A stretch of DNA of 64,000 nucleotides from Patescibacteria group bacterium (GTDB taxonomy: Bacteria > Patescibacteriota > Minisyncoccia > Phycocordibacterales > BOKC01): NCBI GenBank assembly GCA_038062955.1, contig JBBTWE010000001.1, forward strand, positions 554,271-618,270. The letters are read 5' to 3'. Shown here piece by piece: positions 20,924 through 63,575 of this stretch. The notes under the pieces were generated by a model. That model saw only the letters and a list, made by a program, of their open reading frames with translations, made no database searches and was not told the DNA's origin. The number at the start of each line of letters is the position of its first letter. Position 1 is the first letter of the stretch. The translations under genes and the position numbers were made by a program.

Positions 20924-21316
20924 TTACCATATTTCAAACAATACTTCACCGCCCAAATTCAAAGATTTAGCTTCATTTCCAGTTAAAATTCCTTTGGAAG
21001 TTGAAAGTATTAGTTTTCCGAAACCATTCTTCACCGGCTTTATCTCTCTTGATTTAATATAAATTCTTCTTGAAAACTTTGAAACTCTTCTTACCCCCTT
21101 AACACGAGGCTTTTTGTCTGCATCAATTAAAAGCTCAACTTCGATAGTTTTATTTATTTTTTTGCCTCCCTTAGAAACATTTTTGAGAAAACCGTGATTC
21201 TTGAGCAAGGTGACCAAAGCCATCTTTATTTTTGAGTATGGAAAAGAAATAACACTACGGCCAGCGTCTCCGGCATTTTTTATTCTAACAATCATGTCTG
21301 CTATTGGATCGTTCAT
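20924..21316 (-). CDS. rpsH: 30S ribosomal protein S8
   Basis: MNDPIADMIVRIKNA... Confidence 0.9.
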   Translation of the reverse strand: MNDPIADMIVRIKNAGDAGRSVISFPYSKIKMALVTLLKNHGFLKNVSKGGKKINKTIEVELLIDADKKPRVKGVRRVSKFSRRIYIKSREIKPVKNGFGKLILSTSKGILTGNEAKSLNLGGEVLFEIW

Positions 21317-21366
21317 TTTTTTGAAAAGGCAGTATAGAGTTTGTTCTACTTACCTTCTTTTTTTAT

Positions 21367-21552
21367 TTACCAGCTCGATTTTTTAACTCCAGGTATCATC
21401 CCCTCATTTGCTAATTCACGGAAACAGATTCTGCAAAGACCGAAATCTCTCATAAATCCCCTTCTGCGGCCACACTTGAAGCAACGCCTAATAACCCTCG
21501 AAGGATATTTTGGTGTCTTTTTTGCTTTTGCAATCAGGGCCTTTGTTGCCAT
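21367..21552 (-). CDS. rpsZ: 30S ribosomal protein S14 type Z (zinc-binding)
   Basis: 61 aa [12 protein letters not shown]...[26 protein letters not shown] track extension to 21660 runs into a MITE and is rejected. Confidence 0.85.
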
Positions 21553-21562
21553 TTTGGGTGAT

Positions 21563-21682
21563 AAACTCCATATTTGGCCAATTTCTTTGCTAAAACCTCC
21601 GCTTCTCACTCGCCGTATCATTAAATACGTCTCGTTTCGATGCTCAGTTTTATCAAACAACTTGTCTCAAATCTGGAAGTTT
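21563..21682. mobile_element. MITE-like mosaic element (family with GAACTTTCAGATTYG termini)
   Basis: Terminal inverted repeats AAACTCCATATTTGGCC / CAAATCTGGAAGTTT. Internal ACGTATTTAATGATACG-type palindrome module. Confidence 0.5.
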
Positions 21683-21834
21683 ATAATTTATAAGAAAGTT
21701 TTATATGAAAAAAGCTTTTAGAAGCTAGGTAAGAAGCATATCAAAAGCCCGAAAGAAGTCAAGAATGAGGGAGGAGGAAAGTTATAATGTTAAAAGTCCC
21801 TTATAAATAAAAAATGAGCAGTGGAATGGTTACC

Positions 21835-22195
21835 ACCGCTCTCGGTCAGCTTGGGATGTCTCACCCTTTCGCTGGGGTAGCTTGCATACCCGTGGATTTC
21901 TCCACCTGTTGTTTTCCTAATCCCCTACAATAGCAAGAATAGGACGCTAATGAAACATTCCTCGGGGGAACAACAGCAATTCCACACGCGGTCTGCGTTT
22001 CTGTACCTACTGGTCTGGAGGTCTCCACGCATATAGTTTTACCGAGAAATGCCGCTTCCACTAACCCGCTCGGAGAGCCTTCTTTTGTTCGCCTAGAAGG
22101 AATCCGTAGGAAGCCCGGAGGCCAGATTTCAGGCGATGATGGTACTGATTGTTGCACCTCCTTTTAAAAGGTTCATCCATTCAGAGTATACCATA
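21835..22195 (-). ncRNA. Candidate structured RNA of unknown identity (GC-rich, no ORF)
   Basis: About 360 nt at about 50% GC inside an AT-rich operon. No plausible ORF on either strand. GNRA-closed hairpins on the minus strand (GTGGA-GAAA-TCCAC, CTGTTGTT...AACAACAG). Loose resemblance to RNase P P10-P12 segments but no P4/CR-I/CR-V, so not called RNase P. Confidence 0.3.
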
Positions 22196-22247
22196 ATAGA
22201 AATCGCCCTACTCAAAAGATATACATTGCGTGGCTAAAAACAAGAGG

Positions 22248-22796
22248 CTATTTAGCAATCTTCTTAAAAGGAAAACCAAGATAATCAAAGAATGATTTGG
22301 CTTCGTCTTTGTTGCGGGCAGTTGTAACAATTGTGATTGCAAGTCCAAAAACGTCTTTTAGATCTTCATCGGAAGTTTCCGGGAAAATAGTATGCTCTTT
22401 TATGCCGATAGTTAAATTACCAATCTCATCCAAAGATTTTGGTGAAAGTCCTCTAAAATCTTTTGATCGTGGCAAAGAAACATTTAATAATCGGTCCAAA
22501 AAATCAAACATTTTCGCTCCCCGAAGAGTTACTTGATATCCAACAACATCCCCTTCTCGAGACTTAAAGCTAGCAATAGAAATTTTAGCAGGACGTGGAG
22601 AAGGTTTTTGTCCTGTAATTTTTGCTAAACGGTCAGCAACCAGCTCAACTTTCTTTTTATCTTTGATAGAGCCAACACCAACGTTTAAAACCACTTTTAA
22701 AACTTTAGGAACCTGCATAGGATTTTTATATCCACTTATTCCTTTAAAATCCTTAAAAGATTTTTCTAATTTTTCTTTAACTAGTATTGTTGTCAT
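22248..22796 (-). CDS. rplE: 50S ribosomal protein L5
   Basis: Sequence. Confidence 0.9.
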   Translation of the reverse strand: MTTILVKEKLEKSFKDFKGISGYKNPMQVPKVLKVVLNVGVGSIKDKKKVELVADRLAKITGQKPSPRPAKISIASFKSREGDVVGYQVTLRGAKMFDFLDRLLNVSLPRSKDFRGLSPKSLDEIGNLTIGIKEHTIFPETSDEDLKDVFGLAITIVTTARNKDEAKSFFDYLGFPFKKIAK

Positions 22797-22823
22797 GATT
22801 TTAGATATTAGGTAGAACTCGGT

Positions 22824-23042
22824 CTATTTTTTCAGTTTAACATTGGAAACATGTATTGGCATGCTCTTATCGACTAATTGACCCTTTTCTCCGCTCTTCC
22901 GAGGTCTTTGGTGGAATTTATTTATATTTAAACCAGAAACAATAAGCTTATCCGCTTTTGGAAAAACTTTTGTAACTTGCCCGGTTTTACTTTTATCTTT
23001 ACCGGCAATTATTGTAACTTCGTCTCCTTTTTTTATTTTCAT
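22824..23042 (-). CDS. rplX: 50S ribosomal protein L24
   Basis: MKIKKGDEVTIIAGKDK... Start trimmed from the track ORF (23144) to 23042. Confidence 0.85.
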   Translation of the reverse strand: MKIKKGDEVTIIAGKDKSKTGQVTKVFPKADKLIVSGLNINKFHQRPRKSGEKGQLVDKSMPIHVSNVKLKK

Positions 23043-23046
23043 AATT

Positions 23047-23418
23047 TTATACAACCTCTGGCGCCAGGGAAATAATCTTTTGGAACCCTCGCTCTGCCAA
23101 CTCTCTAGGTATTGGTCCGAACACACGTCCAGCCAAAGGCTCATCTTTATCTTTTTCCAGAATCACTACGGCATTATCATCAAAACGAATATAAGAACCA
23201 TCTTCTCTTCTGAATGGGGCTTTTTGTCTTACAACCACTGCTCGCAAAACATCCTTTTTCTTTACTCTTTTTCGAGGTTCAGCTTTTTGAACGGATAACA
23301 CCAAAATATCACCGATACGAGCATATCGTCTCATAGATCCTCCAAGCACCTTGAAAACTCTACCGATTTTGGCACCGGAATTATCTGCAATATTCACAAT
23401 GGATCTAGGTTGTAACAT
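23047..23418 (-). CDS. rplN: 50S ribosomal protein L14
   Basis: MLQPRSIVNIADNSGAK... Confidence 0.9.
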   Translation of the reverse strand: MLQPRSIVNIADNSGAKIGRVFKVLGGSMRRYARIGDILVLSVQKAEPRKRVKKKDVLRAVVVRQKAPFRREDGSYIRFDDNAVVILEKDKDEPLAGRVFGPIPRELAERGFQKIISLAPEVV

Positions 23419-23424
23419 ATTTTT

Positions 23425-23676
23425 TTAAGCTACTACTTTGAAATGCTTGTCTTTTGATAATGGGCGACATTCTTCGATTGTAACTTGAGCGCCTATTTTA
23501 TGGAGATTTCCAGCATCATGAGCCTTATACCTTTTTTTCTCTTTTATATACTTACCATATTTTCCATGTTTAACAAACCTTTGCACAGCAACTACCACAG
23601 TGTCTTTCATTTTGTCTGACACGACAATTCCTTTGAGTTTTTTTGGTCTGCTAATGTTTTTATTTGTAGATTCCAT
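23425..23676 (-). CDS. rpsQ: 30S ribosomal protein S17
   Basis: Sequence and order. Confidence 0.9.
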   Translation of the reverse strand: MESTNKNISRPKKLKGIVVSDKMKDTVVVAVQRFVKHGKYGKYIKEKKRYKAHDAGNLHKIGAQVTIEECRPLSKDKHFKVVA

Positions 23677-23723
23677 ATTTTTTCTTAACTATTTGTTTTT
23701 ATTTTTTCTTCCTTTTCTAAATC

Positions 23724-23743
23724 CCTGCCTGCCGGCAGGCAGG
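23724..23743. repeat. Perfect 20-bp palindrome CCTGCCTGCCGGCAGGCAGG
   Basis: Identical palindrome inside MITE copies at about 46082 and about 51812. Confidence 0.7.
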
Positions 23744-23935
23744 TTAAATCTTTTGTGAGCTGTTTAAGGCTGTTAAAATTCTGGCAATTTCTTTCTTGAG
23801 TTTCTTTCCTTCTTTTACATCCCTGGTTTTGCTGCCCGAAATACCAAAATGGAAATTACGGATATTTTCCTTCTTTTCTTTGAAAAGATTAATCAATTCT
23901 GTCTTATTTTTGGTTTTAAAATCAGTCTTTTTCAT
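23744..23935 (-). CDS. rpmC: 50S ribosomal protein L29
   Basis: 63 aa, order L16-L29-S17. Confidence 0.85.
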   Translation of the reverse strand: MKKTDFKTKNKTELINLFKEKKENIRNFHFGISGSKTRDVKEGKKLKKEIARILTALNSSQKI

Positions 23936-24026
23936 AGATTTACGATTTACGATATAAGATTTATGATTTTCGGTTATAAATTCTATTTTTTCTGTCTTAC
24001 AAATCTGAAATCTTACATCTGATATC

Positions 24027-24446
24027 TTAAATGCGACTTATCACTTTGGTTTTAACCGGCAACTTCGCTCCAGCCGCAACAAGAGCTGCTATCGCGGTCT
24101 TACTATCCACTCCGTCTACTTCAAACAAAACTCTTCCTGGCTTAACTGGGACACAATAGCCCTGTATATCGCCCTTACCCTTACCCATTTTTACTTCAGC
24201 AGGTTTTGAGGTAAAAGGCATATCAGGAAATACTCTGATCCATGATTTTCCGAACTTACCAACTTGTTTTGAAATGACTTTTCTTGCGGCTTCTAGTTGG
24301 TTTGAACGAAGTCTGCCTGGAGTGAGTGCTTTCAGCCCAAAAGATCCAAAAGAAACTCTTGTGCCTCTGGTAGCTAGGCCAACCTTATTCGGATTCTTCC
24401 TTAAGGTGTGCCATTTTCTGTATTTTACTTTTTTTGGGACTAACAT
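24027..24446 (-). CDS. rplP: 50S ribosomal protein L16
   Basis: MLVPKKVKYRK... Confidence 0.9.
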   Translation of the reverse strand: MLVPKKVKYRKWHTLRKNPNKVGLATRGTRVSFGSFGLKALTPGRLRSNQLEAARKVISKQVGKFGKSWIRVFPDMPFTSKPAEVKMGKGKGDIQGYCVPVKPGRVLFEVDGVDSKTAIAALVAAGAKLPVKTKVISRI

Positions 24447-24485
24447 GATAAAAATTTAAGATATACGATTTAAGATTTATGATTT

Positions 24486-25157
24486 CTACTCTCCTTGTTT
24501 TTTGGCAAAAATTTCTCCTTTATAAATCCAGACTTTTATGCCGATTTTTCCATAAGGCAACATCGCCTCAACGCGAGCAAAATCAATATCGGCTCTAAAA
24601 GTTTGAAGTGGGATTCTACCTACTTTACGGTGCTCAATTCTCGCCATAGTAGCTCCGCCCAATCTGCCGGCGAGAAGGATTTTTACTCCCAAGACATTTC
24701 TATTAGCAACAACTTTGCTAATGATTTGCTTCATAACTCTTCTAAACGGCATTCTTTTTTCCAATCCTTCAGCCACCATTTGGCCAACAATTGCGGCATT
24801 GGATTCAGGAGCCTTCACTTCTCTAATATCAATCTTAACTTCCTGTTTTATTTCAGTGCCAGAAAGACGCTTTAATTCTTTTAAAAGTTCGTCCTTAAGC
24901 TTTGTGGCACCTTCACCATTTCGGCCAATAATAACGCCCGGTCTTGAGGTGTCGATAATTATTTTTAAAGCTTTTTGACCACGTTCGATAGAAACCAAAC
25001 TTATAAAAAATCCTTTTAGTCTTTTATTTAAAAATGCTCTAATAAGCAAATCTTCTTTGAGAAGTTCTTTGTATTTCGGTTTAACGCTAAACCAACGAGA
25101 TTTCCAGTCTCTGATTATTCCTAGTCTATGGGAGTATGGGTGTACTGTATGTGACAT
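24486..25157 (-). CDS. rpsC: 30S ribosomal protein S3
   Basis: KH domain and S3 C-terminus. Confidence 0.9.
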   Translation of the reverse strand: MSHTVHPYSHRLGIIRDWKSRWFSVKPKYKELLKEDLLIRAFLNKRLKGFFISLVSIERGQKALKIIIDTSRPGVIIGRNGEGATKLKDELLKELKRLSGTEIKQEVKIDIREVKAPESNAAIVGQMVAEGLEKRMPFRRVMKQIISKVVANRNVLGVKILLAGRLGGATMARIEHRKVGRIPLQTFRADIDFARVEAMLPYGKIGIKVWIYKGEIFAKKQGE

Positions 25158-25177
25158 TTTAATTTAAGATATAAGAT

Positions 25178-25552
25178 TTAAGATTTTATTGGTTTCTTGT
25201 TTTTTATTGAAACTGTTTTTTCTCCGAGTACCAAGATTACCTTACTTGTTCTCTTTCTTATCGGCACCACTCGGCCCCTTGCTCTAAAACGTCTTCGATA
25301 AAGAATGGCTCCCCCATCAACAGATAATCTCTTTATGTAAAGCGTGTCGGCGGTAACATTCTGGCTCTTGGCGTTAGCTAAAGCTGATTTAATCAGTTTG
25401 GTAAGCGGCGCAGAAGATTTTTTTGGAAGCAAACTTAATTCAACCAAAGCACGTTCAGCATTCTTGCCTTTAAGCAAACTTGCAACCAATCTCATCTTTC
25501 GTGGAGATTGTCTGAAGTCATTCAATTTTGCTGTGATTGTTTTTTGTTCCAT
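25178..25552 (-). CDS. rplV: 50S ribosomal protein L22
   Basis: Sequence and order. Confidence 0.9.
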   Translation of the reverse strand: MEQKTITAKLNDFRQSPRKMRLVASLLKGKNAERALVELSLLPKKSSAPLTKLIKSALANAKSQNVTADTLYIKRLSVDGGAILYRRRFRARGRVVPIRKRTSKVILVLGEKTVSIKNKKPIKS

Positions 25553-25560
25553 TGCCTTTT

Positions 25561-25920
25561 TTATTTAGGTTTAGCAGCAGCGTTCGGAGCGGCAACAGCG
25601 GCTTTAGCGCTTTGTGCTGCTGCGATCTCGGACTCTTTCTTCTTCTGCTCGAGTTCCTTCTGCATCTTTCCTCCATGTCTTAAGAATTTTCTGGTTGGAG
25701 AGAATTCGCCCAATCTGTGTCCCACCATGTCTTCGGTAACTCTCACTTCTACATGTTCTTTACCGTTATGCACACCAAAGAGATAACCCACCATTTCTGG
25801 CGCTATCTGGCTGCTACGAGCCCATGTTTTAACCATTCCGACTTCGTCTGGCTTCTTTCCAGAAATTTTCTTTAAAAGCCGTTCGTAGACGTATGGACCT
25901 TTTTTAAGTGATCGTACCAT
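25561..25920 (-). CDS. rpsS: 30S ribosomal protein S19 with Ala/Lys-rich C-terminal extension
   Basis: [13 protein letters not shown]... motif. About 25-aa low-complexity tail. Confidence 0.9.
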
Positions 25921-26005
25921 ATTGTTTAAAAAAAATTACGCTCAAAAGGCGTACTAAGATGTTAGCAGAACACAGCCGTTTGTCAAATTTCCCTGCTCTA
26001 AAGCA

Positions 26006-26491
26006 CTAATTGCAGTCCCGTGGCAGAACTGGCATTGGTTCACCTTCCTTACGAAGGGAAATATTGAGTCTTATTTCCGCACATTTTTCTTGTTGTTTTT
26101 GTTCTAAATCTATTCGCCCCTGCTCCATTTGAGCATTAAATTCTGAATAGGTTCTAGGCCTAGAATCAGGATTAAAAAACAGAATAGACAACCAAATACA
26201 GTAAGGAAATACGAATACGACTGTACCTAGTATTAGCAAAGTAGAGCGAAACACTTTATGGATGTCTTTTCTATAAAACCTGGAAATAATCACGAGAATT
26301 AGAGATAGACCTAATAAAACTAAAGCAGGAATTCCCAAAGCTAGTAATATTCCACCAAATGCAAAGGCATCGCAGTAGAATGCTGAATGGGTTTGAAAAC
26401 ATCTAAACCACCAATAACCTATTACAAGAATATTAAAAATACTTAGCAGTAAAAAAGTAATTCCCAATTTCAATAAAGATTTATTCCACAT
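26006..26491 (-). CDS. Hypothetical 4-TM membrane protein inserted between rplB and rpsS
   Basis: 161 aa, AT-rich like the host, good hydrophobic profile. A candidate internal promoter (TTGACA, 16 nt, TAACAT) lies between it and rpsS. Confidence 0.5.
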   Translation of the reverse strand: MWNKSLLKLGITFLLLSIFNILVIGYWWFRCFQTHSAFYCDAFAFGGILLALGIPALVLLGLSLILVIISRFYRKDIHKVFRSTLLILGTVVFVFPYCIWLSILFFNPDSRPRTYSEFNAQMEQGRIDLEQKQQEKCAEIRLNISLRKEGEPMPVLPRDCN

Positions 26492-26620
26492 AACTAAATT
26501 ATATCACGGAGTCAAGCATTTATTTTGTAGGGGGTTGCGAGCACGACTGGTGCGAGCACTTCAGTTATTTTTTCAGCAGAAAAAATAACGTACCCGGAAA
26601 AATAAAAGCTTGACGAAAAA

Positions 26621-27487
26621 CTACCCTTGTTGCATTCGCTTAGGTTTCCTTCTAGCCACAATCGATCTATTAGAATACTTCTTTGGAGTTCTGGTTTTTT
26701 GGCCAATACCGCTTGGTTTACCCCATTTGGTCTTAGCGCGGCGAAGTCCTCTACCCGATCTACCTTCTCCTCCTCCATAAGGATGATCTACTGGGTTCAT
26801 AGCAGAACCTCTAACCTTTGGTCGAATACCGAGCCATCTGCTTCTTCCAGCCTTTCCTAGATTTACCAAACGATTTTCTTCGTTACTTACTTCCCCAATC
26901 GATGCCCAAACTTTTTCACTCACTCTTCTGATTTCTCCTGATGGCATTTTCAAATCCGCATAGCCTCCGTCTTTGGCAACAAGTTCAGCAAAACAACCAG
27001 CAGATCTGATAAGTTTGGCTCCGTCTCCAGGTTTTAACTCAACATTATAAATAAAAGTTCCAACGGTAAGGCTCTTGAGAGGCAATCTATTACCAATTTT
27101 CATTGGAGCGTTTGCAGAAATCATAAATTGTTCGTCTCTTCCAAACTTTTGAGGAAGAAGCATATATCTTTTTTCTCCATCAGCAAAGACAGCAAGTCCG
27201 ATAAAACCAGTTCTGTTTGGATCGTATTCAACAGAAATAATTTTATAAGGAACTTCTTTTTTATCCAAAACAAAATCCACCATTCTAAAGCTTCTCTTGT
27301 GACCACCACCTTTGTGGCGAACGCTTATTTTACCATCGCTATTGCGGCCAACTCGGCGTTTAAAGCCAGAAACTAAAGATTTTGTGGGTTTGGTTCCAGT
27401 CAAAAGCTGACTGTAATTAATTCCAGTCATCCCCCTTCGGCTCTTGGTTGTTGGTTTATAAAATTTCATAGATTTAGACGGTTTCAA
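26621..27487 (-). CDS. rplB: 50S ribosomal protein L2
   Basis: Sequence. Confidence 0.9.
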   Translation of the reverse strand: MKPSKSMKFYKPTTKSRRGMTGINYSQLLTGTKPTKSLVSGFKRRVGRNSDGKISVRHKGGGHKRSFRMVDFVLDKKEVPYKIISVEYDPNRTGFIGLAVFADGEKRYMLLPQKFGRDEQFMISANAPMKIGNRLPLKSLTVGTFIYNVELKPGDGAKLIRSAGCFAELVAKDGGYADLKMPSGEIRRVSEKVWASIGEVSNEENRLVNLGKAGRSRWLGIRPKVRGSAMNPVDHPYGGGEGRSGRGLRRAKTKWGKPSGIGQKTRTPKKYSNRSIVARRKPKRMQQG

Positions 27488-27851
27488 TCTTGTCTCCTTC
27501 TTTTAAGTAAATATAAGCCTTCTTCACACCTTTTTTTACTCCTCTCTTGCCTCTTATTACAACATTCTTAGCAGGGTTTTTTACAATATTAACCTTAATC
27601 GGAATAATTTTATAAATCTTGGCAAAAGCCAGTCTTACTTCGTTTTTATTGGCCTTAGAATTTATCTCAAAAACATACACATTATTTCCTTGAAGATCTG
27701 TGGCTTTTTCCGTAACTCTTGGCTTTAAAATAATATCGGATGGTTCTTTACTTATTCTAGTAGACAAAACTGAAGTATCTTTTAAAACAGGAGAAATTTT
27801 CTCTGTTGCGACTTTCACTTTTTTTTCTTTTGTTTTTCCAAATAAAGCCAT
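27474..27851 (-). CDS. rplW: 50S ribosomal protein L23 (N-terminal extension)
   Basis: Sequence and order. Confidence 0.85.
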   Translation of the reverse strand: MALFGKTKEKKVKVATEKISPVLKDTSVLSTRISKEPSDIILKPRVTEKATDLQGNNVYVFEINSKANKNEVRLAFAKIYKIIPIKVNIVKNPAKNVVIRGKRGVKKGVKKAYIYLKEGDKIETV

Positions 27852-27861
27852 GTTTGTAGAT

Positions 27862-28572
27862 TTAAGATTTCAGATTTACTTTCGTTTTTTTGTTTTTACC
27901 TGATTCCGAAACAGGGAGTTTATCAGATATACTTTTCAGTGCAACTTTTGGATCAACAACCACCAAATATTTATACTGTAAGAGCATAAGAGGGTTTACA
28001 TTTCTTAGCTCTTCTATTGTTATATTACTGAAATTTCTAAGGCTCATCTCCGCATTTTTATTGCTTTTACTTAAAGCGATAATAGCGTTATTATTTTTCT
28101 TCTCTGAAATTCCTTTAAAACCTTCTACTTTACCTAAATTATTTAAAACTTTTTTAGCATCTTTCGTTTTTGGTTTATCAAAATTTATAGCATCTACAAA
28201 AAGAATTTCATTATCCTTTAGTTTTCTCGAAAGAATTGAGTATAGAGCTTTAGATTTTTTCTTTTTATTGATTTTTTGTGAATAGTCTTTGTCATTACGT
28301 GGACCATGAGAAACTCCTCCACCAACCCAAATAGGAGATCTTGTAGAACCGTGTCTAGCGCGGCCTGTACCCTTTTGTTGCCAAGGTTTTTTACCTCCTC
28401 CACTTACATCCCCTCTGCCTTTAGTGTGAGCTGTTCCACGTCGCATATTTGCTGTCATGCCTAGAGTAACTTCTTTTACCAAATCAGAAGCCCAGGCAAC
28501 ACCAAAAACATCAGTCGGTAAATTTACCTTATCAATCGCTTTTCCTTCCTGGTTGTAAACTACGGATTCCAT
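27862..28572 (-). CDS. rplD: 50S ribosomal protein L4
   Basis: Sequence and order. Confidence 0.9.
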   Translation of the reverse strand: MESVVYNQEGKAIDKVNLPTDVFGVAWASDLVKEVTLGMTANMRRGTAHTKGRGDVSGGGKKPWQQKGTGRARHGSTRSPIWVGGGVSHGPRNDKDYSQKINKKKKSKALYSILSRKLKDNEILFVDAINFDKPKTKDAKKVLNNLGKVEGFKGISEKKNNNAIIALSKSNKNAEMSLRNFSNITIEELRNVNPLMLLQYKYLVVVDPKVALKSISDKLPVSESGKNKKTKVNLKS

Positions 28573-28629
28573 ATTTTTAATTTATTATTTCTTGTTAGAA
28601 CTTTCAGATTTGAGATTTTAGATTACAAT

Positions 28630-29253
28630 CTATATCCCTCTAATTTCTAACAGTGTTCCTCTTCTTCCGGGCACTGCCCCTTTCACAAAAATATAGTTTT
28701 CTGTCTCATTTAAACCGATAACAACCAAATTTTTGACTTTAACTCTATCTCCCCCCATACGTCCTGCCATTCTCATACCCTTAGCAACACGCCCTCCCGC
28801 ACGCCCTCCACCTCCGATAGATCCTGGTTCACGTTCCGAATGTTTCTGACCGTGAGTTCGAGGTCCTCCTCTAAATCCATGTCTTTTTACCACTCCCTGA
28901 AAACCTTTCGATTTAGATATAGCGGCAACTGACACCATATCACCCAAAGAAAAAATGGATGAGTTAATTTTGTCCCCGACTTTATATTTTGATGATTCTT
29001 CCGGAGACACTCTTTCTTCTTTTAAATATTTAAAATTACCGAGTTTTTTCAAATGGCCCATTTGAGGCTTTTTGATGTTTTTAGATTTCCTAAACCCCCC
29101 ACCAATCTGAACAGCGGTGTAGCCATCTTTCGCATCAGTTTTTAGTTGAACAACAGTAACAGGCTCTGTTTTTATAACAGAAGCAGGATAAGACTTACCG
29201 TCTTTCTCAAAAATTTGAGTCATTCCTATTTTTTCTCCTAAGATGAATTTCAT
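28630..29253 (-). CDS. rplC: 50S ribosomal protein L3
   Basis: MKFILGEKIGMTQIF... Start trimmed from the track (29313). Confidence 0.85.
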   Translation of the reverse strand: MKFILGEKIGMTQIFEKDGKSYPASVIKTEPVTVVQLKTDAKDGYTAVQIGGGFRKSKNIKKPQMGHLKKLGNFKYLKEERVSPEESSKYKVGDKINSSIFSLGDMVSVAAISKSKGFQGVVKRHGFRGGPRTHGQKHSEREPGSIGGGGRAGGRVAKGMRMAGRMGGDRVKVKNLVVIGLNETENYIFVKGAVPGRRGTLLEIRGI

Positions 29254-29360
29254 ATCGGCTATAAAAGTTATATATGTCTGCAGCAGATTATAAGTTTTCA
29301 CGCTATAAGTCAATGACTTAGGGCAAATTTACAGAAGGTCATCAATAATCTCTGTTTCTA

Positions 29361-29482
29361 AAACTTTCAGATTTGAGTGCAGTACTAGGCGCGAGCGAGG
29401 AGCGAACCGAGGCCTATTTGGCAATAGGACGAGGGAGCACCGGAGCAAAGTAACGACGTAATGCACTAAATGTGGAAGTTTT
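29361..29482. mobile_element. MITE-like element (same family), abutting rpsJ stop
   Basis: TIR AAACTTTCAGATTTGAG / AAATGTGGAAGTTTT. Internal core is the reverse complement of the core at 36855-36976. Confidence 0.55.
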
Positions 29483-29861
29483 AGATAATTTTGACATCTA
29501 TATCAACCCCTGAAGGCAAACTCATATTCGTAAGCGATTCGATAATCGCAGGCGCCGGGTTAATGATATCTATCAGTCTTTTGTGCACCCTCATTTCAAA
29601 CTGCTCTCTTGCGTTCTTATAAACGAAAGCCGCCCTGTTAACAGTGTACTTTTTTATTTCTGTTGGGAGAGGGATCGGCCCCAACACTTTGGCATCAAAC
29701 CGAAGAGCTGTGTCGATTATTTGTTTAACCGATAAATCTAATACTTTATATTCATAAGCTCTCACTCGGATGCGAAGCTTGGTGATAGCATTCAAGCCTC
29801 CAGCATTTTTTATGGATGCAGCTTTGGTTTTTTTTGTCGTTACTTTTTTAGTGGTAGGCAT
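29481..29861 (-). CDS. rpsJ: 30S ribosomal protein S10 (N-terminal Lys-rich extension)
   Basis: GPIPLPT...HKRLIDI motifs. Confidence 0.9.
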   Translation of the reverse strand: MPTTKKVTTKKTKAASIKNAGGLNAITKLRIRVRAYEYKVLDLSVKQIIDTALRFDAKVLGPIPLPTEIKKYTVNRAAFVYKNAREQFEMRVHKRLIDIINPAPAIIESLTNMSLPSGVDIDVKII

Positions 29862-29909
29862 ATGAATATTTTATTTGTAAAAGTACCAGATAAATCAACT
29901 AGGAGAACG

Positions 29910-31100
29910 TTAGGCAGCTATTTTTGTTACCACACCTGCTCCTACAGTCTTTCCTCCCTCTCGGATAGCAAATCTTTGCTGAACTTCTAGGGCAATTGGA
30001 GCAACCAATTTAACTTTAAATTTAACTGTGTCTCCTGGCATAACCATCTCTACTCCTTCTGGCAAAGTAGCTTCTCCAGTAACGTCAGTAGTTCTCATGT
30101 AAAACTGTGGCTTGTAACCTGAAAAGAATGGGGTGTGTCGTCCGCCTTCTTCTTTCTTAAGAACGTAGATTTCAGCTTCAAATTCTGTATGAGGAGTCAC
30201 TGAACCTGGTTTAGCCAAAACTTGTCCACGATGAACATCTTCTTTCTTGAGACCTCGGAGAAGAATTCCGGCGTTATCTCCAGCCAAACCTTCTGAAAGA
30301 GATTTGTTGAACATTTCAATTCCAGTCACAACAGTTTTAGCTGTTGGATGAAGACCGATAATTTCAATTTCTTCACCAACTTTTACTGTACCTCTTTCGA
30401 TTCTTCCGGTAACCACAGTTCCTCGGCCTTCAATTGAGAAGATGTCTTCAACTGGCATAAGGAATGGCTTATCTACCTCTCTCTTTGGCATTGGAATATA
30501 TTCATCAAGAGTGTTGGCAAGTTCCAAAACCTTCTTTGACCAATCATCATTATTATCTTTAGCTTCGAGCGCTTTAAGAGCAGAACCTCTTATAATCGGA
30601 GCAGTTTTTCCATCAAAATCATACTTGGAGAGTAATTCTCTAACTTCTTCTTCCACGAGATCAATAAGTTCAGGATCAGGAACCATATCGCACTTATTCA
30701 AGAAGACGATAATCTTTGGCACACCAACTTGTTTTGCAAGAAGAATATGTTCTCTGGTCTGTGGCATAACACCGTCAGTTGCGGCAACAACCAAGATCGC
30801 ACCGTCCATTTGGGCGGCACCAGTAATCATGTTCTTGATGTAATCAGCATGTCCTGGAGCATCAATGTGAGCATAGTGTCTTTTAGCTGTTTCGTACTCG
30901 TTGTGAGAAAGAGCAATAGTAATACCTCGAGCTTTTTCTTCTGGAGCGGAGTCAATTTGGTCTACTCCTTTTATTTTTACGTCAAAACCAGCTCGGTGAA
31001 GAACGTTTAAAATAGCTGCTGTTAAAGTAGTTTTCCCGTGATCAACGTGACCGATGGTTCCTACGTTAACATGGGGTTTGCTTCTATTAAATTCTGCCAT
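29910..31100 (-). CDS. tuf: Elongation factor Tu
   Basis: [25 protein letters not shown]... Track start 31127 runs into the MITE, so trimmed to 31100. Confidence 0.95.
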
Positions 31101-31108
31101 AGTGTTAT

Positions 31109-31261
31109 AACTTTCACATTTGGCCAATTACTTTGCTAAAATCTGCGCTTCGATGCTGATTTCTACATCATAGAAATCATGTCGGAAGATTTTTTATCAC
31201 GAAGTGATATAAAATTTCTGACTCAGTTTTATCAAAGAACTTGTCTCAAATCTGGAAGTTC
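31109..31261. mobile_element. MITE-like element immediately upstream of tuf
   Basis: TIR AACTTTCACATTTGGCC / CAAATCTGGAAGTTC. Contains the GAAATCATGTCGGAAGATTTTTTATCACGAAGTGATATAAAATTTC module shared with 50371 and 62280. Confidence 0.55.
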
Positions 31262-31394
31262 TAAGTTATTAGTAAATAATTATTAAAATTTTATCAAAAT
31301 TTAAATCAAATTGATTATTTTTGCTTACATACAAAAACAAAAATAGCGCAAAAGCGTTATCTGACATATTAACAAACATAATAAAAGAGTCAAC

Positions 31395-31459
31395 CCCGTA
31401 GTAGATTTTGGCATAGCAACTTCGTTGCGACAGCAACAATGCCAAAATCTACTACGGGG
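31395..31459. repeat. Long hairpin repeat (family B): CCCCGTAGTAGATTTTGGCAT ... ATGCCAAAATCTACTACGGGG
   Basis: Perfect 21-bp arms. Homologous copy at 63245-63301. The CTACTACGGG motif recurs at 9292, 36493, 54370 and 54466. Confidence 0.7.
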
Positions 31460-31487
31460 TCAAGGGATGATTTAGTTTTATAGGTTA

Positions 31488-31560
31488 ACCCGCCTAAATT
31501 TTTCTTGAAAAACTTTGGCGGGTAAAAGAAAAGACCCGTACCGAAGTACAGGCCCCATTT
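31488..31560. repeat. About 70-bp repeat (family C) at the 3' end of a GC-rich gene
   Basis: TTAACCCGCCTAAATTTTTC...GGCGGGTAAAAGAAAAGACCC. Homologous copy at 42762-42835 in the same position relative to another GC-rich minus-strand gene. Confidence 0.65.
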
Positions 31561-32072
31561 TAGGCTTTGGAATGCACTTGGCGAGAGAACACTCGACAAT
31601 TGCCAAAGCCCCTGTGAGACCACTTGAATGAACTGTGTGTGGTCATAGCGCCAATACGCCAACTACCATCAATCCAGGACACGTAGACAGTACGAAGCGT
31701 ACCTGCAACATCTCTGACATAGAAAATGTTGGCCATGGCATTTGTAAGAAGAACACCACGTTCACGATTCTCTTGCATCTTCATGAGAGAAGACATCACC
31801 GTCAAGGTGGTTTCAGCTTTTGCTTCACCACCAAGTTCATCTATGATGGAACTGTTGCAACAGGGCTGACACAATTCGTGATAACAGAGAGTCTGTTCGT
31901 CTTGTGGCTCCTCAACCTTGCCGTCACCCGCGAAAAACCAAATGTTGAAATTTTTTCTGGGGCAGTTTGGTCTTGCCTTAACTTCTCCACGACCGAACTT
32001 GGTCTTGGCAACCAACTTTTCAGCACTTGCAGACATGACAATCGTCCCAACAGTCTTGAGAATTGCAGACAT
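31560..32072 (-). CDS. Hypothetical Cys-containing protein (GC about 50%) inserted between fusA and tuf
   Basis: 170 aa. AGGAGG RBS 7 nt upstream of ATG. No recognisable domain. ORFs on the opposite strand overlap it. Confidence 0.5.
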   Translation of the reverse strand: MSAILKTVGTIVMSASAEKLVAKTKFGRGEVKARPNCPRKNFNIWFFAGDGKVEEPQDEQTLCYHELCQPCCNSSIIDELGGEAKAETTLTVMSSLMKMQENRERGVLLTNAMANIFYVRDVAGTLRTVYVSWIDGSWRIGAMTTHSSFKWSHRGFGNCRVFSRQVHSKA

Positions 32073-46066: not shown

Positions 46067-46208
46067 AAACTTTCAGATTCCTGCCTGCCGGCAGGCAGGT
46101 GAGACAAGTTTTTTAATAAAACCGAGCACCGAAACGAGACGTATTACCTATACGATGAAGTGAGGCGCGGAGGTTTTAGTAAAAAAATTGGCCAAATATG
46201 GAAGTTCT
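46067..46208. mobile_element. MITE-like element abutting a pilin-like gene stop
   Basis: TIR AAACTTTCAGATTC / CCAAATATGGAAGTTC. Contains the 20-bp CCTGCCTGCCGGCAGGCAGG palindrome and a GACGTATTACCTATACG module. Confidence 0.55.
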
Positions 46209-51798: not shown

Positions 51799-51874
51799 GA
51801 ACTTTCAGATTCCTGCCTGCCGGCAGGCAGGTGAGACAAGTTTTAGTAAAAAAATTGGCCGAATCTGGAAGTTC
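51799..51874. mobile_element. Short MITE-like element between pilC and pilB
   Basis: TIR GAACTTTCAGATTC / GAATCTGGAAGTTC enclosing the CCTGCCTGCCGGCAGGCAGG palindrome. Confidence 0.55.
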
Positions 51875-56304: not shown

Positions 56305-56318
56305 GCTCTCACTTCGTT

Positions 56319-56388
56319 CGGGGCGCCGAGAATCGAACTCGGGCCACATGATCCCAAATCATGTATACTACCGCTATACTACGCCCCG
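56319..56388 (-). tRNA. tRNA-Pro (anticodon UGG)
   Basis: Manual cloverleaf: acceptor CGGGGCG/CGCCCCG, anticodon loop UUUGGGA, T-arm CCGAG-UUCGAUU-CUCGG. Confidence 0.7.
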
Positions 56389-56479
56389 TTTTTAAACAAA
56401 CAAAACTTATACTTAATGCGACATCGAAATAAATGTTATGTTATGCTAGCATATTCCTGTTCGGTAATGAAATTCCAAA

Positions 56480-56797
56480 ATGAAAATTGATAGGAAGTTT
56501 CAAAGAACAGTTGAAGATTTTAAATGCACACATTGTGGAGCTGAAATTAAAGGAAATGGCTACACAAATCATTGTGAGAACTGTCTCTGGAGTAAACATG
56601 TAGACAAAAACCCAGGCGATAGGTCTTCAAATTGCAATGGCGAAATGCCACCATTGAGTGTATTCCAAAGAAAAGGAAACTATTTTTTGGTTCATAAATG
56701 CACGAAATGTGGTTTAGAGAAAAACAATAAAGTGTCCGGCAAAGATGATTTTGAAAAGGTGCTTCATCTTTCAAGTGGTATAGAAAAGAAAAAGTAA
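56480..56797 (+). CDS. RNHCP-domain zinc-ribbon protein
   Basis: CTHCG...NHCENC...CTKCG motifs. Confidence 0.6.
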   Translation: MKIDRKFQRTVEDFKCTHCGAEIKGNGYTNHCENCLWSKHVDKNPGDRSSNCNGEMPPLSVFQRKGNYFLVHKCTKCGLEKNNKVSGKDDFEKVLHLSSGIEKKK

Positions 56798-56807
56798 AAA
56801 ATGTAAA

Positions 56808-56881
56808 GCGGGATTAGTTAAATGGTATAACTCCAGTTTTCCAAACTGGTGTCGGGAGTTCGATTCTCCCATCCCGCACCA
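56808..56881 (+). tRNA. tRNA-Gly (anticodon UCC), CCA encoded
   Basis: GCGGGAT acceptor, anticodon stem CCAGU / loop UUUCCAA, T-arm GGGAG-UUCGAUU-CUCCC, 3' ATCCCGCACCA. Confidence 0.8.
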
Positions 56882-56896
56882 ATAGAGCGAAGCTGG

Positions 56897-57026
56897 GCGG
56901 GATAGAACGTGCCTGCGCACGTTCGTGGGAGAATCGAAAGGGTTTTCGATGTTTCTGAAAAGCTTTGTTTTGAGGAAACCGAAAACCACCTGACTACGTG
57001 ATAGCCGATTCTCTCACCCCGCACCA
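56897..57026 (+). other. tRNA-like composite element, copy 3, downstream of tRNA-Gly(UCC)
   Basis: Begins GCGGGATAG (same as the tRNA 5' end). Then 8-bp hairpin GAACGTGC-ctgc-GCACGTTC. Then long element closed by GAGAATCG...CGATTCTC. Ends CCCCGCACCA (copy of the tRNA 3' end). Confidence 0.5.
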
Positions 57027-57042
57027 ATTTAGTATCAGTTCC

Positions 57043-57438
57043 CTACTCCGGCACCACATCTTCAATAATTTTTACTCGAGCAACTTTCTTAATCGGGTCA
57101 AAAAGAATTGAAATGACTAAGAAATTCCAATCCGAATCTTCTTTGTGTTTGCTCCATAAGTAAACCTGGATTGTTTTAGAAATTCGACGAAGTTTCCCCG
57201 CATTTACTTTTTCTTCCGGACGAGGACGATTTATCAAAGACAAAGATTCTAATTGTTTTAAATCCACCGTTTCTGTTTTTACCTCAACAAAACATATTTG
57301 TTTGTCTTTTTCAGCAACTATATCGATTTCGCCGCATTTTTTAGAATAATTCCTATCTAAAATTTTATATCCTTTTTCTATAAGGATTTTGCAGGCTATA
57401 TCCTCACCTTTATTCCCTGTTTTCTTTTTCTCAAACAT
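57043..57438 (-). CDS. yraN: YraN family (UPF0102) endonuclease-like protein
   Basis: GEIDIVA...FVEVK core. Confidence 0.7.
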   Translation of the reverse strand: MFEKKKTGNKGEDIACKILIEKGYKILDRNYSKKCGEIDIVAEKDKQICFVEVKTETVDLKQLESLSLINRPRPEEKVNAGKLRRISKTIQVYLWSKHKEDSDWNFLVISILFDPIKKVARVKIIEDVVPE

Positions 57439-57676
57439 TAATTAGAAATAAAAAAACAATTTTTTAGACCTTTTTAAACAGACTAAATGACCAGAATAAC
57501 CTTAAGGGACTGCTTTTTGTCTTTAAATACACATTTCCACAGACTTATCCACAGTTCCTAAACAAACTTTTTAGATTAAATTTTTCAAAGAGGGCTTATT
57601 TTATAAACTTTCCAAAAAAATTATTTTTAATTTATACCTTAATATTGCCTAATCAATATTTTTAAGGACATTTTTT

Positions 57677-57803
57677 GGTGCGGGTGCCGGGAATCGACCG
57701 TTACTCGGTCAGTCCCCTTGTTGGATAAATTTTCGTTTTTCAAACTCAAATTTATGCTCAACAAGGCTTCGATTCCCTGAAAAAGTGCTTCCGAGCACTT
57801 TTT
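57677..57803 (-). other. tRNA-linked composite structured element, copy 2, downstream of tRNA-Gly(GCC)
   Basis: Minus-strand: tRNA-Gly, then GAACGAAGTGA, then hairpin AAAAGTGCTCGGAAGCACTTTT, then 90-nt element (GGGAATCGA...TCGATTCCC), then GGCACCCGCACCA. The last 22 of 24 nt match the tRNA-Gly(GCC) 3' end GGTTCGATTCCCGGTACCCGCAC. Confidence 0.6.
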
Positions 57804-57835
57804 CTACCCTTTCTAATTTCACTTCGTTCAATTTG

Positions 57836-57906
57836 TGCGGGTACCGGGAATCGAACCCGGGTCTCGTCCTTGGCAAGGACGTGTCATACCATTAAACTAT
57901 ACCCGC
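57836..57906 (-). tRNA. tRNA-Gly (anticodon GCC)
   Basis: GCGGGTA acceptor, anticodon stem CGUCC / loop UUGCCAA, T-arm CCGGG-UUCGAUU-CCCGG. Confidence 0.8.
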
Positions 57907-58029
57907 TTTTTTTTAAGTGCTACTCGAAAAGAATAGCAAAGATTTGCGTTTGTTTCTAGTTAGAAATTTACTAGTAAATAAAAAGAGCCTAAAGCTAGAA
58001 CTTAGGGCCCTGTGATTTGTATACGCTTC

Positions 58030-58295
58030 TCAAGAACAAGTTTTGGGACAGTTATGTGTCTCACCAATCTGAAACTTTGCGCCGCAGAGATTGCAGATCT
58101 GTAGTGGAAGCATATGTCCTGTCATGAATATTGCACCACAACAATCGCAGCCATAAGCGGTGGCATCATCCCACAAGTCACGGCTCCCACACTTCATGCA
58201 CCTACCAGTAAAGTGTCCTGTGGGCAAATTGTTAGGATTATTAGTCATCTGAAGCTGGGCCAGTTCATTCACGTCTGTGATTGGTGTCTTCATTA
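58030..58295 (-). CDS. Small Cys-rich (10 Cys) zinc-ribbon-like protein, GC-rich
   Basis: GAGAGG RBS then ATG (MKTPITDV...). CxxC...CxCC...CxxC...CxxxC pattern. GC about 50% against AT-rich flanks. Confidence 0.45.
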
Positions 58296-58396
58296 TTTCC
58301 TCTCTTTTGAAAGAACAGAGATATTGGTAGTTTTGAGAGACACACCAATAATCTATTTTCATACTCGCATACAAACACCAAGAGGTCAAAATTTTG

Positions 58397-58468
58397 TGCG
58401 CCCGGCAGGACTCGAACCCGCAATAACGGTTCCGAAGACCGTTGTGATATCCATTTCACCACAGGCGC
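58397..58468 (-). tRNA. tRNA-Arg (anticodon UCG; anticodon call tentative)
   Basis: Acceptor GCGCCUG/CGGGCGC (one G-U), D-arm GUGA...UCAC, anticodon loop CUUCGGA, T-arm GCGGG-UUCGAGU-CCUGC. Confidence 0.6.
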
Positions 58469-62280: not shown

Positions 62281-62466
62281 AACTTTCACATTCGGCGTAT
62301 CTCTGCGTTACTTCGCTCCGAGCCTCCCTCAACGTATTATTAAATACGTCTCGGTACGGTTCTGATTTCTACACCATAGAAATCATGTCGGGAGATTTTT
62401 TATCACGAAGTGATATAAAATTTCCGACTCGCTCGCGCCTTGATCTGCATCCGAATCTGAAAGTTC
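62280..62466. mobile_element. MITE-like element overlapping rpsO stop
   Basis: TIR GAACTTTCACATTCGG / CCGAATCTGAAAGTTC. Module content near-identical to the 50371 copy. Confidence 0.65.
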
Positions 62467-63454: not shown

Positions 63455-63575
63455 GAACTTTCAGATTTGAGACAAGTTTGTTGGAAAAACTGAGCACCGA
63501 AACAAGACGTATTTAATAATACGATGAAGTGAGGAGCGGAAGTTTTTACGACAAAATTGGCCGAATGTGAAAGTT
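63455..63575. mobile_element. MITE-like element upstream of nusA
   Basis: TIR GAACTTTCAGATTTGAG / CCGAATGTGAAAGTT. GACGTATTTAATAATACG palindrome module. Confidence 0.6.

Follow-up and report, generated by a model that had tools for sequence, protein, structure and literature searches.

A variable gene slot beside a conserved promoter-like and hairpin module between rplB and rpsS in a Patescibacteria lineage

Introduction

Stabilising stem-loops at the very 5' end of a transcript are known from the ompA type in Escherichia coli and from the 5' stabilisers of Bacillus subtilis, and they need no U-tract after the stem. Leaders of ribosomal protein (r-protein) operons may instead act as attenuators, dependent on L4 and NusA in the E. 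coli S10 leader, and known as well from the L20 and L10 leaders of B. subtilis (PMC3616713, PMC1865079, PMC4538822). Insertions between operons of the same r-protein cluster have been reported from Gammaproteobacteria and Bacilli (PMC6735719, PMC8046335). Here we analyse a 64,000-nucleotide (nt) stretch of DNA from a Patescibacteria group bacterium (GenBank assembly GCA_038062955.1, contig JBBTWE010000001.1), referred to as the window throughout. Within its S10 operon a gene for a membrane protein of 161 amino acids (aa), ORF161, is placed between rplB (L2) and rpsS (S19), and a promoter-like sequence, a hairpin and a U-tract, together called the module below, are found directly before rpsS.

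As in the known inter-operon insertions, unrelated genes gather here at transcription-unit boundaries of the most syntenic bacterial cluster, and the units stay intact. The difference is that this boundary lies inside the S10 operon, which is single in E. coli, that it is marked by the module, and that its content turns over between species with 94–99% identical L2. The module resembles the S10, L20 and L10 leaders in that a hairpin and then a U-tract separate the promoter from the unit's first r-protein gene, but it consists of a single 5–7-bp hairpin at about +1, with no larger protein-binding fold, no alternative structure and no Rfam match. It is similar to the 5' stabilisers of the ompA type in that the predicted transcript opens on a stem, essentially without a single-stranded 5' tail; it differs from them in carrying a U-tract, and its transcription start site (TSS) is a predicted one. 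The literature searched gave no description of an rplB–rpsS boundary, a turnover slot or a +1-hairpin module in the Candidate Phyla Radiation (CPR), which is not proof of absence.

The explanation that we consider likely as a whole is an ancestral split into two units with a conserved boundary module and a variable slot, of which ORF161 is a later tenant. In the Paceibacteria (Taylorbacteria-like) lineage of ultra-small CPR bacteria the classical S10 operon would thus be two transcription units, tuf-rpsJ...rplB and rpsS...rplE, with the boundary module right before rpsS, comprising a near-consensus sigma-70 promoter with extended −10, a 5–7-bp hairpin at or next to +1, and the U-tract. No co-translation or tight coupling would be required across the boundary, so that DNA arriving downstream of the rplB stop and ahead of the module would leave r-protein expression unharmed, and the site would have turned into a fast-turnover slot for unrelated genes. 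ORF161, putatively from a small clade-restricted envelope family with three transmembrane (TM) helices, a C-terminal helix on the outside and two Cys pairs predicted to be extracytoplasmic, would have entered the slot before two sister species diverged from their common ancestor and been kept there by purifying selection. Its expression would start from a TATAAT of its own 6 nt upstream of the ATG (leaderless-type) or come about by read-through from rplB. The hairpin with its U8 would stop or attenuate transcription arriving from upstream, and on transcripts from the rpsS promoter the same hairpin would form a 5'-terminal stem-loop protecting the mRNA.

The junction has practical weight, since CPR genomes are placed by the syntenic block of 16 r-proteins, L2 and S19 included, as their standard marker set. 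With a variable slot of 0 to >3.4 kb in the middle of this block, the recovery of markers from contigs and tests for chimeric assembly are both affected. It also indicates that the most conserved bacterial operon can be re-partitioned, with an internal promoter point becoming a site of gene turnover. The slot lets one see, as an experiment of nature, how the architecture of an operon limits insertion, and through the conserved module transcription signals become open to concrete tests in organisms for which experimental genetics hardly exists.

Results and Discussion

The rplB–rpsS junction in related genomes

The r-protein cluster of the window is on the minus strand and runs tuf (about 31100–29910), rpsJ, rplC, rplD, rplW, rplB, ORF161, rpsS, rplV, rpsC and onward, as assigned from open reading frames (ORFs) and Pfam. 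The order rpsJ-rplC-rplD-rplW-rplB-rpsS-rplV-rpsC-rplP-rpmC-rpsQ matches the contiguous S10 operon of E. coli. The tight rplB–rpsS junction of the E. coli-type operon, i.e., a spacing of tens of nt without promoter or terminator inside it, was not found: the spacing is 16 nt in E. coli, and the gap in the window is 700 nt in total and holds a gene as well as the promoter and hairpin module. The last gene of the upstream unit tuf-rpsJ-rplC-rplD-rplW-rplB is rplB itself (26621–27469, minus strand; Pfam Ribosomal_L2_N/C, E 5e-25 and 6e-49), and the downstream unit, rpsS through rplE, is opened by rpsS (25561–25920, minus strand, 119 aa; Pfam Ribosomal_S19, E 1.6e-31; ratio of nonsynonymous to synonymous substitution rates, dN/dS, 0.02). 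The S19 protein has an Ala/Lys-rich C-terminal extension of ~27 aa past the Pfam domain, which is common to the sister species.

The comparison set comprised the 80 species-level genomes closest in L2 (61–69% identity), labelled Paceibacterota, Parcubacteria, Nomurabacteria, Taylorbacteria, Adlerbacteria and similar; individual loci of relatives carry numbers of the type L001. The rplB–rpsS spacer had a median of 672 nt (n = 58, range 3–2689) and was longer than 200 nt in 43 of the 58, whereas the spacers S10-L3, L3-L4, L4-L23, L23-L2, S19-L22, L22-S3 and S3-L16 had medians from −59 to 33 nt and exceeded 200 nt in 0–6 loci each. In 14 further loci no rpsS was found within about 3.4 kb after rplB. 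Altogether, more than 200 nt, and up to >3.4 kb, separate L2 and S19 in 57 of 72 informative related genomes; the view that these two genes are adjacent in essentially all bacteria, from which the original prediction started, holds for E. coli but not for this clade. The slot is clade-wide and specific to the rplB–rpsS junction. Its turnover is fast, as seen from gap lengths in pairs of genomes with 94–99% identical L2 (96 vs 1286, 188 vs 1537, 787 vs 1460, 336 vs 132 and 608 vs >3473 nt).

The cargo of the gaps consisted mostly of singletons. Recognisable cargo included DagK (nine loci), orotidine monophosphate (OMP) decarboxylase (pyrF), a phosphoribosyltransferase, a histidine kinase, DUF1189 and a mechanosensitive-channel-like protein, as well as FtsW/RodA, FolD, ComEC, HlyD, a glycosyltransferase and one IS200-type transposase, the latter in just one gap among the relatives. 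A synteny comparison, as had been proposed for this locus, reveals a variable slot in the clade, with ORF161 present in the gap only in two sister species, that of the window and of L012, and that of L007; a hidden Markov model (HMM) of the family found no gap cargo in the comparison genomes related to ORF161. The insertion of ORF161 is a local instance of a general pattern of the clade, and the interesting object is the junction with its boundary module, not the gene.

The commonest tenant was DagK (PF01219, 3 TM, about 130 aa), found in 9 of 58 gaps (L019, L033–L037, L048, L067, L076) and often followed by pyrF and the phosphoribosyltransferase gene. Like ORF161 it is a small membrane protein with three TM helices, encoded on the operon strand right after rplB, but ORF161 differs from it in four conserved Cys and a 55-aa outside tail. 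Homology between the two was considered and rejected: ORF161 had no match to PF01219 at E ≤ 1, and the HMM of its family did not retrieve any of the DagK gap proteins.

The promoter and hairpin module

The promoter of rpsS is located at 25959–25986 on the minus strand, with TTGACA at 25986–25981, a 16-nt spacer bearing TG at −15/−14, and TAACAT at 25964–25959. Hexamers and spacing are of the sigma-70 type (16–18 nt), and the TG gives an extended −10. A promoter scan ranked it as the best site in 11 kb (10/12), and the covariance model described below matched here with 40.2 bits. The hairpin and T8 follow at 25928–25953 (minus strand), with TACGC-CTTTTGA-GCGTA at 25953–25937 and T8 at 25935–25928. 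Both promoter and hairpin had been picked out in the 85-nt spacer before rpsS by the original prediction, and we could confirm them. The stem starts about 6 nt past the −10, on or beside the predicted +1; it has 5 bp, 3 of them G-C, a folding energy of −5.6 kcal/mol (z = −2.15), and T8 begins one nt after it. A stem of at least 5 bp with a U-tract behind it has the shape of an intrinsic terminator, and the hairpin was picked up in a scan for terminator-like structures. In the sister species L007 the block from −35 to −10 is identical at 28 of 28 positions, at a synonymous divergence (dS) of about 0.6–0.9, and the stem is kept while the loop is rewritten; the rplB–ORF161 spacer is merely 31% alignable between the two. 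Thus the promoter-like sequence and the hairpin with T8 are supported as functional-looking elements.

In the window alone, the pattern of promoter plus hairpin occurs at three sites vs 0–3 in shuffled sequences, which is not above chance. The significance of the module comes from its conservation across species. The motif TTGAC(A/T)-16/17-TAnnAT was found before rpsS in 54 of 58 relatives, usually with TTTGC (extended −10), vs 0–21% upstream of other operon genes and 9% of shuffles, and it is followed in relatives, 6–9 nt downstream, by a 5–7-bp hairpin and a T-rich run. When the full module was called under one strict rule, it was present before rpsS in 37 of 58 loci, vs 0–4% of other genes and 0.7% of shuffles. 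A covariance model built from these leaders placed the module directly before rpsS in 53 of 58 loci and gave a site upstream of tuf in 28 loci; all matches were on the operon strand, and only L016 had one outside the rpsS and tuf positions. Wherever cargo is present, it is always placed between rplB and the module, and 11 loci with a spacer of 80–190 nt contain the module and no ORF. The hairpin was found to covary, with double-sided changes in seven of seven pairs and 75 compensatory cells vs 26.7 ± 4.4 in shuffles (0/500). Pairing was 78%, vs 25–51% when the partner was slid, and G-U pairs occurred on the sense strand. These comparisons of sequence show a module that is conserved independently of the cargo. 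Since it stands before rpsS in 53 of 58 relatives whatever the cargo, cargo-free spacers included, the break is ancestral and older than the insertion of ORF161, and it was probably the pre-existing break that permitted the insertion.

Two further copies were found in the window, both on the minus strand. One is located upstream of tuf (31327–31393; match to covariance model R1, 40.8 bits), the other upstream of rpsN, encoding S14 (21695–21762; R1, 33.6 bits). Because the same architecture stands before tuf and rpsN, the cluster is organised as tuf...rplB, then rpsS...rplE, then rpsN and onward. A hairpin as a general feature of promoters in this genome was also considered: out of 55 promoter-like sites in the window it accompanies only those at r-protein boundaries and one likely chance site, but this count is not above shuffles and by itself carries little information. 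The −35 of the tuf module is directly adjoined by a long, almost perfect inverted repeat, ccccgtagtagattttggcat...atgccaaaatctactacgggg, at 31464–31388 on the minus strand. Matches of Rfam miRNA families at this repeat were dismissed as spurious, as they reflect only the long hairpin.

The distance from −10 to stem is 6 nt in 38 of 56 rpsS leaders and in 20 of 29 tuf leaders, and the first base of the stem is mostly A. With this spacing the predicted transcript would begin with the hairpin, a geometry that fits a protective stem-loop at the 5' end. The U-tract, which is obligatory, gives the same element the shape of a terminator, by which it could halt polymerases coming in from rplB or from cargo genes, or else act on its own unit as an attenuator. 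The rpsN copy already has a strong terminator 54 nt upstream of its −35, so the hairpin there would not be needed merely to end the preceding unit, and this favours a role on the promoter's own transcript. The stem consensus differs between units, AAGCTCG/CGAGCTT before rpsS and AACTGCA/TGCAGTT before tuf; such unit-specific stems hint at room for unit-specific recognition by analogy with L4, L20 or L10 attenuation. Over positions 21000–32000, no Rfam family for a leader, spacer or nearby structure was matched at gathering threshold or at E ≤ 1.

ORF161 and its family

The gene at 26006–26491 (minus strand, ATG start, co-oriented with rplB and rpsS) was correctly delimited in the original prediction, and its composition is native, with 34.8% G+C and 27% at third codon positions, vs 38.8% G+C in the window and 23–42% at third positions of the neighbouring genes. 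An absent coding signature, or loss or frameshifting of the frame elsewhere, had been named as what would speak against a gene. The signature is present, with dN/dS of 0.22 at dS of 0.94 against the sister species; the neighbouring r-protein genes of the same species pair have dS of 0.5–0.9 and dN/dS of 0.02–0.20. The frame is intact, with 99% identity and in the identical position, in L012, an independent assembly from Hainich groundwater. In the sister species (L007–L010, L095 and L096, from several Rifle-type samples), whose L2 is 95% identical in aa sequence, the copy between rplB and rpsS is 64–67% identical and is interrupted at codon 126 by a single in-frame TGA in place of CGA (region L007:4376–4480), fixed across contigs of several samples. 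Past this TGA, 35 codons continue in frame to the same stop and are conserved, with dN/dS of 0.087, as would be expected after a recent truncation that removed the C-terminal tail; low-level read-through is the alternative. Recoding of TGA in the sister species is unsupported, as its r-protein genes are read normally.

A four-TM protein had been predicted; hydropathy peaks at residues 5–27, 41–69 and 81–105 give three TM helices instead, and the AlphaFold model (predicted local distance difference test score, pLDDT, 91.6) has helices at 4–34, 37–72 (kinked) and 79–106, followed by a soluble C-terminal helix at 115–145. The positive-inside rule would place the N-terminus and the K/R-rich loop 70–83 inside, and with them loop 1 (C31, C40) and the C-terminal helix and tail (C137, C160), i.e., both Cys pairs, are predicted outside. 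The proposed search for homologues and structural relatives returned an orphan. Nine homologues were found by word-indexed search and 29 clusters by a full HMM scan of 1.84 billion protein representatives, nearly all of 100–200 aa. Their identity to ORF161 is 45–67%, while the motifs and Cys are kept down to 23% identity; conserved in the family are an N-terminal M(W)NK..LLK, the RCxQTxSxFYCD loop, GIPAL in TM2, the Cys of the C-terminal helix and a terminal (G/D)C(N). ORF161 had no match above noise in Pfam, NCBIfam, PADLOC or the PDB sequence profile, the best Foldseek hit of its fold against PDB had an E value of only 4.2, and the anti-phage models of PADLOC recognised no family in ORF161 and two homologues. 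The most defensible reading is that of a lineage-specific envelope protein. Such proteins are common in Patescibacteria, whose genomes are reported to have ~63 novel clade-restricted families each, 56% of these with TM segments or signal peptides (10.1101/2022.01.26.477801). ORF161 is likewise a membrane-embedded orphan of a narrow CPR lineage, in itself a modest addition to these envelope proteins, and its location alone sets it apart.

Homologues with 45–52% identity are distributed over at least eight unrelated contexts, none with L2 or S19 within 3 kb. One adjoins GtrA/S20/RuvA (Candidatus Taylorbacteria GCA_001822755.1); others neighbour a methyltransferase and a pseudouridine synthase, an acylphosphatase and a prenyltransferase, or CutA, or occur in several other places. 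No promoter and hairpin module was found downstream of the homologues at these other sites. Judged from these contexts, the gene was recently relocated into the gap, and a link to ribosomal genes is not a trait of the family. The window contains no paralogue of ORF161, no ancestral locus and none of the genes that neighbour the homologues. A vehicle for the move was not found either: no repeats flank ORF161, no terminal repeat of the mobile-element-like family described at the end occurs in 25900–26700, and the recombinase gene or flanking repeats around the cargo that mark an integration hotspot are not there.

Upstream of ORF161 there is no Shine-Dalgarno sequence. An extended −10-like TGaTATAAT, read off the sequence at 26498–26506 (minus strand), ends 6 nt upstream of the ATG. 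This TATAAT-6 nt-ATG is the sole piece of the rplB–ORF161 spacer conserved in L007, and the distant homologue in L011 likewise has TATAAT-7 nt-ATG, which suggests that ORF161 may have its own leaderless-type promoter; read-through from rplB is the alternative. The same spacer holds a nested inverted-repeat element of 104 nt (26511–26614, minus strand), with outer 16-nt arms at 26614–26599 and 26526–26511, an inner perfect 11-bp hairpin at 26589–26579 and 26574–26564, and the direct repeat GTGCTCGCA at 26559–26551 and 26544–26536. The spacer folds with −36.9 kcal/mol vs −19.1 ± 2.9 in shuffles (z = −6.1). The element is single-copy in the window, is present only there and in L012, and is absent from L007; it may be a small insertion, or act as a barrier or in the manner of a terminator.

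Alternative explanations

The original prediction suggested that the insertion created a transcriptional break, i.e., that the arrival of ORF161 brought or created promoter and terminator and thereby split adjacent rplB and rpsS. Promoter and hairpin do stand immediately downstream of ORF161, and the last 42 nt of the gene are unusually conserved jointly with the promoter in the two carrier species. Yet the module precedes rpsS in 53 of 58 relatives without any ORF161 homologue, 11 of them with nothing but the module in the spacer, and the relatives of ORF161 at other sites lack it while the same architecture recurs before tuf and rpsN, so that we regard this order of events as very improbable. 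The conserved 42 nt were also considered as a regulatory signal, and this was down-weighted, as distant homologues elsewhere keep 78% identity there. More weight, although still less than an even chance, is given to the possibility that hairpin and U-tract are primarily a regulated attenuator, responding to r-protein, Nus factor or nucleoside triphosphate (NTP) levels, rather than a 5' stabiliser or insulator. The canonical terminator shape agrees with it, the unit-specific stems hint at unit-specific recognition, and there are precedents in L4 at the E. coli S10 leader and in L20 and L10 of B. subtilis (PMC1865079, PMC4538822, PMC3616713); however, with the hairpin at about +1 and the U-tract ending 5–40 nt before the rpsS ATG there is no room for an antiterminator, the strict +1 placement is expected of a 5'-terminal stem-loop instead, and no Rfam leader was matched. 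We would therefore rank the dual role as insulator and 5' stem-loop first and the regulated attenuator second.

Concerning ORF161 itself, its co-orientation, its embedding between r-protein genes and its retention in two species could mean that it is tied to the ribosome as a membrane tether or assembly factor, with its position selected for co-expression. This is hard to reconcile with most family members living outside r-protein clusters, in the GtrA/S20/RuvA, pseudouridine synthase, CutA and other contexts, with the nonsense codon in the sister species and with the functionally unrelated cargo in the slots of relatives, and we hold it to be quite unlikely. That ORF161 is a decaying or spurious frame in junk spacer DNA is hardly credible: the lack of a known domain, the TGA truncation and the many orphan short gap ORFs in relatives would fit, but not the dN/dS of 0.22 overall and still lower past the sister-species stop, nor the deep conservation of motifs and Cys, the high-confidence AlphaFold model and the intact copy in an independent assembly. 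The ancestral split with a later tenant is the explanation we prefer, and several points weigh against it. In the window the stem, with its 5 bp and −5.6 kcal/mol, is a weak one, and the only basis for the predicted TSS is where the −10 lies. The hairpin with U8 should also partly terminate its own transcript, so the roles as stabiliser and as terminator are in tension. As for the covariation, the alignment behind the counts had been fitted to the model. The sample comprises the L2-closest genomes only, the reach of the split across the phylogeny and the number of separate insertion events are considered here without a species tree, and many of the short ORFs in the gaps may be spurious. The TGA of the sister species implies that the full-length ORF161 protein is dispensable there. 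Going further, one may tentatively see the rplB–rpsS junction as a conserved promoter-insulated "landing pad" with repeated gene gain, trial and loss, and the module of tuf, rpsS and rpsN as an undescribed class of r-protein operon control, possibly an insulator, 5' stabiliser or attenuator with stems perhaps read by r-proteins; we give this extension less than an even chance.

Other elements in the ribosomal protein region

A repeat family resembling miniature inverted-repeat transposable elements (MITEs), of 74–185 nt and with terminal inverted repeats AACTT[C/T]CAGATTTG, was found in the window, some copies having an internal GC hairpin, CCTGCCTGCCGGCAGGCAGG. Copies are located at 21563–21681, 29362–29480, 31109–31260, 46068–46206, 51800–51873, 62281–62465 and 63456–63575, with a solo end at 28599–28612. 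Three genes, rpsN, tuf and a nusA-like gene, have a copy immediately before their start codon, and one copy fills the S10-L3 spacer. The pattern gave 28 matches vs 13 ± 3.7 in shuffles and no Rfam match. In the sister species a copy is present between rplV and rpsC (L007:5297–5430), where the window has just 20 nt; within r-protein operons the family is therefore polymorphic at the least, if not mobile.

Between the rplE stop and the promoter module of rpsN (22215–21815, minus strand) there is a stretch of ~400 nt, richer in G+C than its surroundings and with no gene called in L012. A TATACT −10-like box stands before it, and a strong terminator, GAGCGGTGG...CCACTGCTC followed by T6 (21841–21816), closes it. 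With a fold z of −2.8 and no Rfam match at E ≤ 1, this stretch is a candidate for a non-coding RNA gene inserted in the spc region. Elsewhere in the window, at 1731–2127 and 56318–58468, a tmRNA gene (116 bits) and four tRNA genes were recognised, all of them ordinary.

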